Shown: piece after piece, positions 61,533 to 61,820 of the stretch | Position numbering within the stretch: the stretch's first letter is position 1 | Layout of the letters: every line of letters starts with the position of its first letter | Assembly: GCA_029212365.1 (NCBI GenBank) | Contig: JARGOC010000010.1 | Span: 13,441-77,440, forward strand | Origin: Roseovarius sp. | Lineage (GTDB): Bacteria; Pseudomonadota; Alphaproteobacteria; Rhodobacterales; Rhodobacteraceae | DNA: 64,000 nucleotides | Direction of reading: 5' to 3' | Translations under genes and position numbers: made by a program | Notes under the pieces: generated by a model | Told to the model about the DNA's origin: nothing | Seen by the model: the letters and a program-made list of their open reading frames with translations, nothing else | Database searches by the model: none

Positions 61533-61820
61533 TTAGCCCGGCAGGTCGCGGTCCAGTTCTTCGAGTGAACCCATGCGGTCGTCAGGCAGATCCATGGCGG
61601 CGCAGGTGCCTTCGTCAACCAATTTCCAGGCGTTGCCTTGGTAATCAACAGTGGAAGAACCGGCGCATGTGGTGCCTGCACCCGCTTTGCAATCGTTTTC
61701 GCCAGCCAGTGCAACGCCATAGCATTTTACTTGGCCTGCGGCAGAGGCAGTGCTGGTTTGTGCAGCCAGAGCGGCGGTGACAGCGCCAGCGATGGCAACG
61801 GTTTTCATCAAGTTCGACAT
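61533..61820 (-). CDS. bufA: DUF2282 signal-peptide-bearing 4-Cys precursor peptide (BufA-like)
   Basis: 95 aa. GGGAG lies 8 nt upstream. Sec signal [27 protein letters not shown]. Core [47 protein letters not shown] with Cys at 33, 44, 52 and 73. Acidic tail [21 protein letters not shown]. Confidence 0.85.

Follow-up and report, generated by a model that had tools for sequence, protein, structure and literature searches.

The question raised by this locus is what the two ends of a small precursor peptide are for, if this peptide starts with a complete Sec signal in place of a RiPP leader and continues well beyond its last cysteine. The open reading frame in question (95 amino acids; 61533..61820, minus strand) lies in a 64-kb stretch of Roseovarius DNA that is called the window below. 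Its translation is identical with the peptide of an initial annotation, and the cysteine positions (33, 44, 52 and 73) and the A-S-A cleavage site are as stated there. Taken together, the results make it highly probable that the peptide is a BufA1-type precursor in which the signal peptide serves export and the tail consists of a closing segment plus an extension that completes or stabilises the fold.

The bufA gene and its operon

Judged by its sequence, the open reading frame is a real gene, far above chance. It matches the Pfam model PF10048 (DUF2282) over residues 31-78 (E=2.9e-22, 78.9 bits, cut-off 22.4), 5232 homologues of the peptide are found in the database, and marine metagenomes contain the window sequence. 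The stop codon occupies 61533-61535, M1 is the start kept in the orthologues, and a Shine-Dalgarno sequence (AAGGGAG; 61829..61835, minus strand) was recognized by inspection 8 nt 5' of the ATG. The Roseovarius orthologues (~85% identity) bear the name "BufA1 family periplasmic bufferin-type metallophore", and the score with the BufA2 model is only 22.5 bits (cut-off 60). No relative of BufA was found in the PDB, either by profile or by fold.

Members of the Buf1 family (DUF2282) have 80-120 residues, four cysteines and a Sec signal peptide (PMC11626156). With its 95 residues BufA is inside this range, and its four cysteines, C33 (CysI), C44 (CysII), C52 (CysIII) and C73 (CysIV), define a core (residues 33-73; 61602..61724, minus strand) with an inter-Cys spacing of 10/7/20, equal to that of BufA1 from Caulobacter vibrioides (CCNA_03363). 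This spacing is near-universal among representatives at 50% identity, all four cysteines are invariant in the alignment of the relatives, and the mean column entropy of the core is 0.47 bits in the best 80 relatives. Furthermore, Y34 (after CysI), K45 (after CysII), A53 (after CysIII) and W65 (of strand 2) are in register with Y13, K24, A32 and W44 of Buf1, a comparison that rests on the residue numbers in the text of PMC11626156. Both precursors have a Sec signal and give a mature peptide of 68 residues. They differ in the number of residues that precede CysI in the mature form (5 in the window peptide, 11 in Buf1) and in charge, as the window peptide in its mature form carries a strong net negative charge (about -7), unlike Buf1. 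All testable features that define the BufA1/DUF2282 family are present in the window peptide.

Directly downstream of bufA and co-directional with it are bufB (60602..61459), bufC (59844..60605) and bufD (59296..59847), all on the minus strand. BufB, an MNIO (DUF692) bufferin maturase, matches Pfam PF05114 (2e-103) and scores 371.6 bits with the NCBIfam model NF050167 (MNIO_BufB), above the equivalog cut-off of 310; its score with the HvfB model (239 bits) is under the cut-off of 360. The solved structure closest to BufB by sequence is 3BWW (4.9e-48), and MbnB structures are matched at 1e-7 to 1e-12. BufC is a DUF2063 partner protein (Pfam PF09836, 2.3e-23) for which no solved relative was found by sequence. 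BufD is a DoxX-family membrane protein with three hydrophobic segments (Pfam PF07681, 1.7e-06, 29 bits, cut-off 23.6). The start and stop codons of bufB and bufC (60602-60605) and of bufC and bufD (59844-59847) overlap by 4 nt, which suggests translational coupling of the maturation genes. The bufABCD operon is the same as the gig operon (Leprevost et al., PNAS 2024, PMC11626156), and BufA1 of Caulobacter is also encoded in a bufABCD operon, together with MNIO, DUF2063 and DoxX genes. Because of the Pfam match, the operon, the equivalog score of BufB, the cysteine spacing with its landmark residues and the named orthologues, all of them sequence criteria, we identify the open reading frame as bufA, the gene for the precursor of a BufA1-type bufferin, and assign it to a chromosomal bufABCD operon.

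Nearly all of the 80 related genomes have kept the operon. The synteny of bufC is retained in nearly all related loci, and a tblastn search recovered bufD from 65 of these 80. In the window, the operon is followed by a convergent arsC-like gene (Spx/ArsC family; 58885-59199) and, beyond this gene, by cspA (58519-58725). The order thrS - bufABCD - convergent arsC-like gene - cspA (56451-63918 in the window) recurs in about 36-41 of the 80 loci (L001-L080), and in about 40 Rhodobacterales genomes the buf operon lies between thrS and the arsC-like gene plus cspA. This conserved gene order indicates that the roseobacter buf operon occupies a stable site of the chromosome rather than an island. As Sec-exported, MNIO-modified bufferins were described in 2024, the bufA gene of the window is a standard chromosomal member of a known family, with little discovery value in itself.

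Complete DUF2282-DUF692-DUF2063-DoxX operons are present on conjugative IncF plasmids of clinical E. coli as well, where they stand beside a TetR-family gene. The plasmid records with buf genes comprise 60 from Escherichia, 17 from Klebsiella and 8 from Salmonella.

Export and proposed maturation of BufA

Residues 1-27 of BufA (61740..61820, minus strand) are predicted by heuristics and homology to be a Sec (SPase I) signal peptide that is cleaved after A27. The N-terminus has K6 in the n-region, a hydrophobic stretch of 14 residues and, at positions 25-27, A-S-A, and the best 12-residue hydropathy window reaches 2.2 in the signal vs 0.88 in the mature part. According to the same heuristics, the features of a Sec signal (n-, h- and c-regions, A-x-A) hold across all 80 relatives, with alanine at -1 in 66 and at -3 in 57 of them; neither a twin-arginine motif nor a lipobox was found in BufA or in the 80 relatives. 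The mean entropy of the signal peptide is 1.95 bits in the best 80 relatives. For Caulobacter BufA1, cleavage takes place at the predicted site, and the signal peptide is able to export beta-lactamase (PMC11626156). The initial description of BufA as a DUF2282 precursor with a Sec-type signal, encoded beside cytoplasmic DUF692 and DUF2063 proteins, is thus borne out by Pfam, heuristics and homology. The use of a Sec signal instead of a RiPP leader was published for the BufA1 family in 2024 and is not new.

It had also been proposed that the signal peptide must at the same time be what the maturation enzymes recognise. This necessity is contradicted by the work on BufA1, in which both thiooxazoles were still made upon co-expression in E. 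coli when the entire signal peptide was missing, and recognition by the maturation enzymes lies somewhere in the core peptide; for the authors, a leader function of the signal peptide under natural conditions stays possible (PMC11626156). By analogy, the signal peptide of BufA probably serves export and is not the recognition element. A classical leader-dependent RiPP precursor of the MbnA type was considered and rejected: the N-terminus is a Sec signal, and the window operon contains neither an ABC exporter gene nor a protease gene, the latter being absent from the conserved part of related buf operons too. Another proposal of the initial annotation, namely that modification precedes export, agrees with the published model (PMC11626156) and is to be expected because BufB and BufC possess neither a hydrophobic N-terminus nor a signal peptide.

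[quoted passage not shown] If the chemistry, copper binding and mature termini are extrapolated from this homologue, the BufA precursor would be made in the cytoplasm, and BufB (multinuclear non-haem iron oxidase) together with BufC (DUF2063, with an RRE-like domain) would convert C44 and C52 to 5-thiooxazoles. The modified chain would be exported by the Sec machinery and cut after A27 by signal peptidase I, and the C33-C73 disulfide would form in the periplasm. The product, a 68-residue mini-protein (predicted monoisotopic mass 6955.05 Da, compared with 6965.13 Da for the unmodified chain; pI about 4.1), would sequester copper via its two thiooxazoles.

The bufferins of the BufA2 / Buf_6/12Cys types share with BufA the Sec signal, maturation by MNIO and DUF2063 proteins, thiooxazoles and copper binding (PMC11626156), but have six or twelve cysteines and lack the DoxX gene. 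The EGKCG-repeat peptides (oxazolin/HvfA, fontiphorin, bulbicupramide; proposed class 'captophorins') are associated with related MNIO and DUF2063 enzymes and have Cys-derived copper-binding heterocycles and often an N-terminal signal. However, these peptides are repetitive and largely unstructured, contain many cysteines and do not have the DUF2282 fold. In the methanobactin system (MbnA, MbnB, MbnC), an MNIO and its partner also make copper-binding heterocycles from cysteines. Here, the differences are that MbnA has a classical leader, which is bound by MbnC and then removed, and no Sec signal, that the chemistry is of the oxazolone-thioamide type, and that the product is a secreted copper scavenger rather than a periplasmic buffer (PMC11626156).

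The C-terminal tail

After CysIV, BufA continues for 22 residues, seven of them acidic and two basic (net charge -5), compared with 16 residues in Buf1; the extra residues form L-x-R-D-L-P. The segment initially described as a 21-residue tail with 8 Asp/Glu contains 7 of these residues and not 8. Nor is the tail "unusually long": it exceeds that of BufA1 by six residues, other members of the family have 12-21 residues at this place, and within its own clade it belongs to the shortest class. The underlying statement that DUF2282 proteins usually end soon after the last cysteine proved to be mistaken, as typical members have a tail of 12-21 residues with a conserved GSL. Note that the Pfam model of DUF2282 stops about 8 residues after the last cysteine, which probably accounts for this view.

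The tails were compared in three samples. Among 80 well-formed representatives at 50% identity (sample a), short tails without the RD extension are the most frequent (42; median length 17.5 residues, as a rule basic, with xxIKTPKGxGSLTPKx as the typical sequence), followed by longer tails ending in R-[DN]-x-P (21; RD class) and by other tails (17). The median net tail charge is +2 in the short class vs -1 in the RD class. GSL is kept in both classes (G84 90-100%, L86 93-97%), and the Caulobacter Buf1 tail likewise has it. Compared with the typical short tail, BufA has one extra residue before GSL and five after it. The core columns show no class-specific change between the tail classes, and no class-specific core residues possibly touching the extension were found. 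The short-tail representatives are almost all metagenome proteins, and named short-tail examples were taken from plasmid records (sample b). These DUF2282 members, from a Ralstonia megaplasmid (12 tail residues), Agrobacterium pAt2 (17) and an E. coli IncF plasmid (21), share the core, the operon and a GSL or related segment with BufA, but their tails are usually basic and lack R-D-[LIV]-P. The Sinorhizobium meliloti tail consists of 22 residues and ends in RDVPS. A third type of tail (VKMKSPGSPTGYGQLEAFKNA) was seen in the BufA of the E. coli plasmid NZ_CP127851.1 (L081).

Sample c comprised the best 80 species-level genomes of at least 591 relatives. Most of them belong to Rhodobacterales, the others to further Alphaproteobacteria (Hoeflea, Mesorhizobium, Sinorhizobium/Ensifer, Roseibium, Bradyrhizobium, one Rhodovibrionaceae genome) and to a few Gammaproteobacteria (Granulosicoccaceae, one Ectothiorhodospiraceae genome). 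In this sample, which was picked by similarity to the full-length query and is therefore biased toward like tails, all 80 relatives have after CysIV the same pattern as the window peptide, x2-[MI]-x-L-P-(0-5 inserted residues)-x2-R-x-G-S-L-x2-L-x-R-D-[LIVM]-P. The tail lengths are 22 (n=22, the shortest class, to which the window peptide belongs), 23 (14), 27 (30, the commonest) and up to 46 residues. R82, G84, R91 and D92 are conserved to 100%, P94 to 99% and L89 to 96%; L78 and P79 reach at least 90% in these 80 species from several orders. Residues 82-94 have a mean entropy of 0.74 bits. The codons of the invariant tail residues show free synonymous variation, which argues for selection on the protein.

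The suggestion that the tail may define a subfamily proved right, as the L-x-R-D-[LIV]-P ending is present in 80/80 of the best relatives vs only 21/80 of the representatives. The RD[LIV]P tail marks a subgroup of BufA1 found by sequence comparison mostly in Alphaproteobacteria and in few Gammaproteobacteria. On the basis of conservation and of the structural models described below, the tail can be divided into a family-wide part with L-P and G-S-L (residues 74-89; 61554..61601, minus strand) and a clade-specific extension (residues 90-95, DRDLPG; 61536..61553, minus strand), which together with L89 gives L-x-R-D-[LIV]-P. Judged by its conservation pattern, the segment 89-94 is under strong selection and extends the closing segment of the family in a clade-specific manner. 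Tail subfamilies are not discussed in PMC11626156, PMC12452194 or 10.1101/2025.11.18.689057, and a literature search on DUF2282 in roseobacters gave nothing relevant. It is thus possible that the RD[LIV]P subgroup has not been described before, but as a variation it stays inside a known family. In other words, the BufA1 family splits by its C-terminal ending, and in a large clade the RD[LIV]P extension is strictly conserved.

The alignment with DUF2282 members, which the initial annotation had recommended, also bears on the simplest view of the tail, namely that it is unconserved filler without function. Residues 74-77 and 80-81 are indeed variable (entropy 2-2.6 bits), and an insertion of five residues (AMADG-like) is tolerated in many relatives, as one would expect of filler. 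The invariance of R82, G84, R91 and D92, the conservation of P94, L89, L78 and P79 and the codon turnover rule this view out for residues 78-79 and 82-94, and for the tail as a whole its probability is practically nil.

The tail had further been proposed to be an extra metal-binding arm, which would provide a second site or an altered selectivity. Seven carboxylates in 22 residues of a peptide whose family function is metal binding speak for this proposal. However, the net charge of the tail ranges from -9 to +3 in the best 80 relatives, so that the conserved property is the motif and not the acidity. The window tail contains no cysteine, histidine occurs in only 2 of the 80 tails, the methionine positions M76 and M83 are conserved to only 44-47%, and the invariant residues are R, G, R, D and P. 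From general coordination chemistry, carboxylates are poor ligands for Cu(I). As the single copper of Buf1 is held, moreover, in the 2N2S shell with the thiooxazoles mentioned above, we regard a metal-binding arm as very improbable.

Acidic pro-regions are known in other secreted peptides, and the tail or its last residues might by this precedent be a pro-sequence that is cut off by a periplasmic protease, a fate that the initial annotation had considered as well; nothing more direct points to it. In several longer relatives (P0152, P0167, P0194, P0212, P0218, L069), RD[LIV]P is internal and followed by tens to hundreds of residues, so it is a domain end and not a C-terminal tag. Furthermore, the tail is predicted to be ordered (see below), the conserved operon does not include a protease gene, and the mature Buf1 is the whole core peptide, with a C-terminus that mass spectrometry showed to be complete (PMC11626156). 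Proteolytic removal of the BufA tail thus appears hardly credible.

Some of the longer relatives are of interest for their architecture. In P0212 (585 aa) and P0218 (421 aa), the BufA1 domain with its internal RDLP is fused to long C-terminal regions, whereas other proteins consist of repeated BufA1 domains (P0255, 1987 aa, with 5 matched stretches; P0141, 244 aa, with two domains). These fusions and repeats agree with the "continuum from peptides to proteins" described in PMC11626156.

AlphaFold2 was run for the window peptide and for a Roseovarius orthologue with a 27-residue tail. The overall confidence is moderate (mean pLDDT 72-73, with 73 for the window peptide; pTM 0.54-0.57). Both models have the published Buf1 topology; for BufA, strands are predicted at residues 30-34 and 65-69 and a helix at 72-75, the strands being in register with the Buf1 strands T9-Y13 and W44-K48. 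In the last three blocks of the tail, the pLDDT is 86/88/80 in the window peptide and 85/84/81 in the orthologue, and isolated beta-bridges are present in both models at the equivalents of L78, R82 and S85. The tail is thus modelled as ordered, with the closing segment (residues 74-89) packing along the beta-sheet, and not as an appendage. In our reading, the most likely role of residues 89-94 (L-x-R-D-L-P) is to complete or stabilise the mature fold.

The invariant charged R-D pair, if solvent-exposed, would fit a protein-protein interface equally well. The tail, especially R82...L-x-R-D-L-P, might then be a follower-type recognition sequence that replaces the leader and docks on the RRE-like domain of BufC or on BufB. 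The dispensability of the BufA1 signal peptide, which places recognition within the core peptide, would be in line with this, as would a tail motif that is nearly as conserved as the cysteine core and selected at the protein level. However, most of the family lacks the extension, and the BufB and BufC homologues of these members presumably do the same job; Caulobacter, with its 16-residue tail, is the very case for which this was shown, and the Ralstonia, Agrobacterium and E. coli plasmid tails are shorter than that of BufA, too. As, in addition, AlphaFold2 packs the tail already in the monomer and the core columns show no class-specific change, we consider a follower role unlikely. A similarly low probability is assigned to the more general idea that L-x-R-D-[LIV]-P is a functional module beyond fold padding, i.e. 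either a retained BufBC docking element or a handle for a periplasmic partner. If such a handle did exist, it would mean that mainly alphaproteobacterial bufferins hand copper on and do not only sequester it. Besides its preferred role in the fold, the RD[LIV]P extension offers a cheap truncation target for locating the determinants of BufBC recognition.

Candidate regulatory elements and flanking genes

While bufB, bufC and bufD overlap, bufA and bufB are separated by a gap of 73 nt with a hairpin inside. This GC-rich hairpin of 13-14 bp (61495..61526, minus strand; MFE -35.8 kcal/mol, z=-3.1) follows the bufA stop codon and precedes a U-rich stretch. Hairpins of unrelated sequence were found at the equal position in 74 related loci (median z=-2.7), with clear U-tracts behind them in several loci (L008, L013, L018, L020, L025). 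A simple terminator scan did not call the hairpin between bufA and bufB, and an Rfam search of 59000-62200 gave only a chance miRNA match on it (E=0.55). The hairpin is a candidate for a partial terminator or an mRNA stabiliser and would then determine how much precursor is made relative to maturase. Attenuation in favour of the precursor over the enzymes is common in RiPP operons, and the hairpin fits such an arrangement. In metatranscriptome data, one 253-nt contig covers bufC (about 98% identity), and nothing was found over bufA.

Upstream of bufA (~135-160 nt), two tandem 15-bp units, each containing an ACG-N4-CGT(G) dyad (GCTAACGCGTTCGTGTCTAACGGGCTCGTGA), are located at 61952..61982 (minus strand). 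This pair occurs once in the 64-kb window. Upstream of bufA in 21 related loci, most of them from Rhodobacterales, the dyad pattern is found again at a distance of 100-138 nt; these loci account for most of the 29 matches in all loci and the window on both strands. The dyad pair is a candidate operator or promoter element. Together with the conserved hairpin, it provides testable leads on the regulation of the roseobacter buf operon.

An inverted repeat just past the thrS stop codon (62037-62083; GGCGGCGGAATCCCC...GGGATTCCGTCGCC on the minus strand) resembles a terminator of thrS; given this repeat, transcription of bufA probably starts from a separate promoter in the 274 nt between the two genes. 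In Caulobacter, a sigF/nrsF regulator pair accompanies the operon; no SigF/NrsF regulators were found near the operon or elsewhere in the 64-kb window, and only 5-6 of the 80 related loci have them within 6 kb. A sequence just upstream of the bufA ATG (GTAACC...CGAA) presumably resembles the Caulobacter SigF promoter, but it overlaps the ribosome-binding site and the start codon and was dismissed as a coincidence.

On the opposite side of the operon, a 96-aa open reading frame (58075-58365, plus strand) without a Pfam or NCBIfam match encodes a peptide with a signal peptide and six cysteines, including a CC pair. Its homologues are found ~1 kb past the buf operon in 10 related loci, and the features of the peptide may point to a further small, Cys-rich protein that is secreted.
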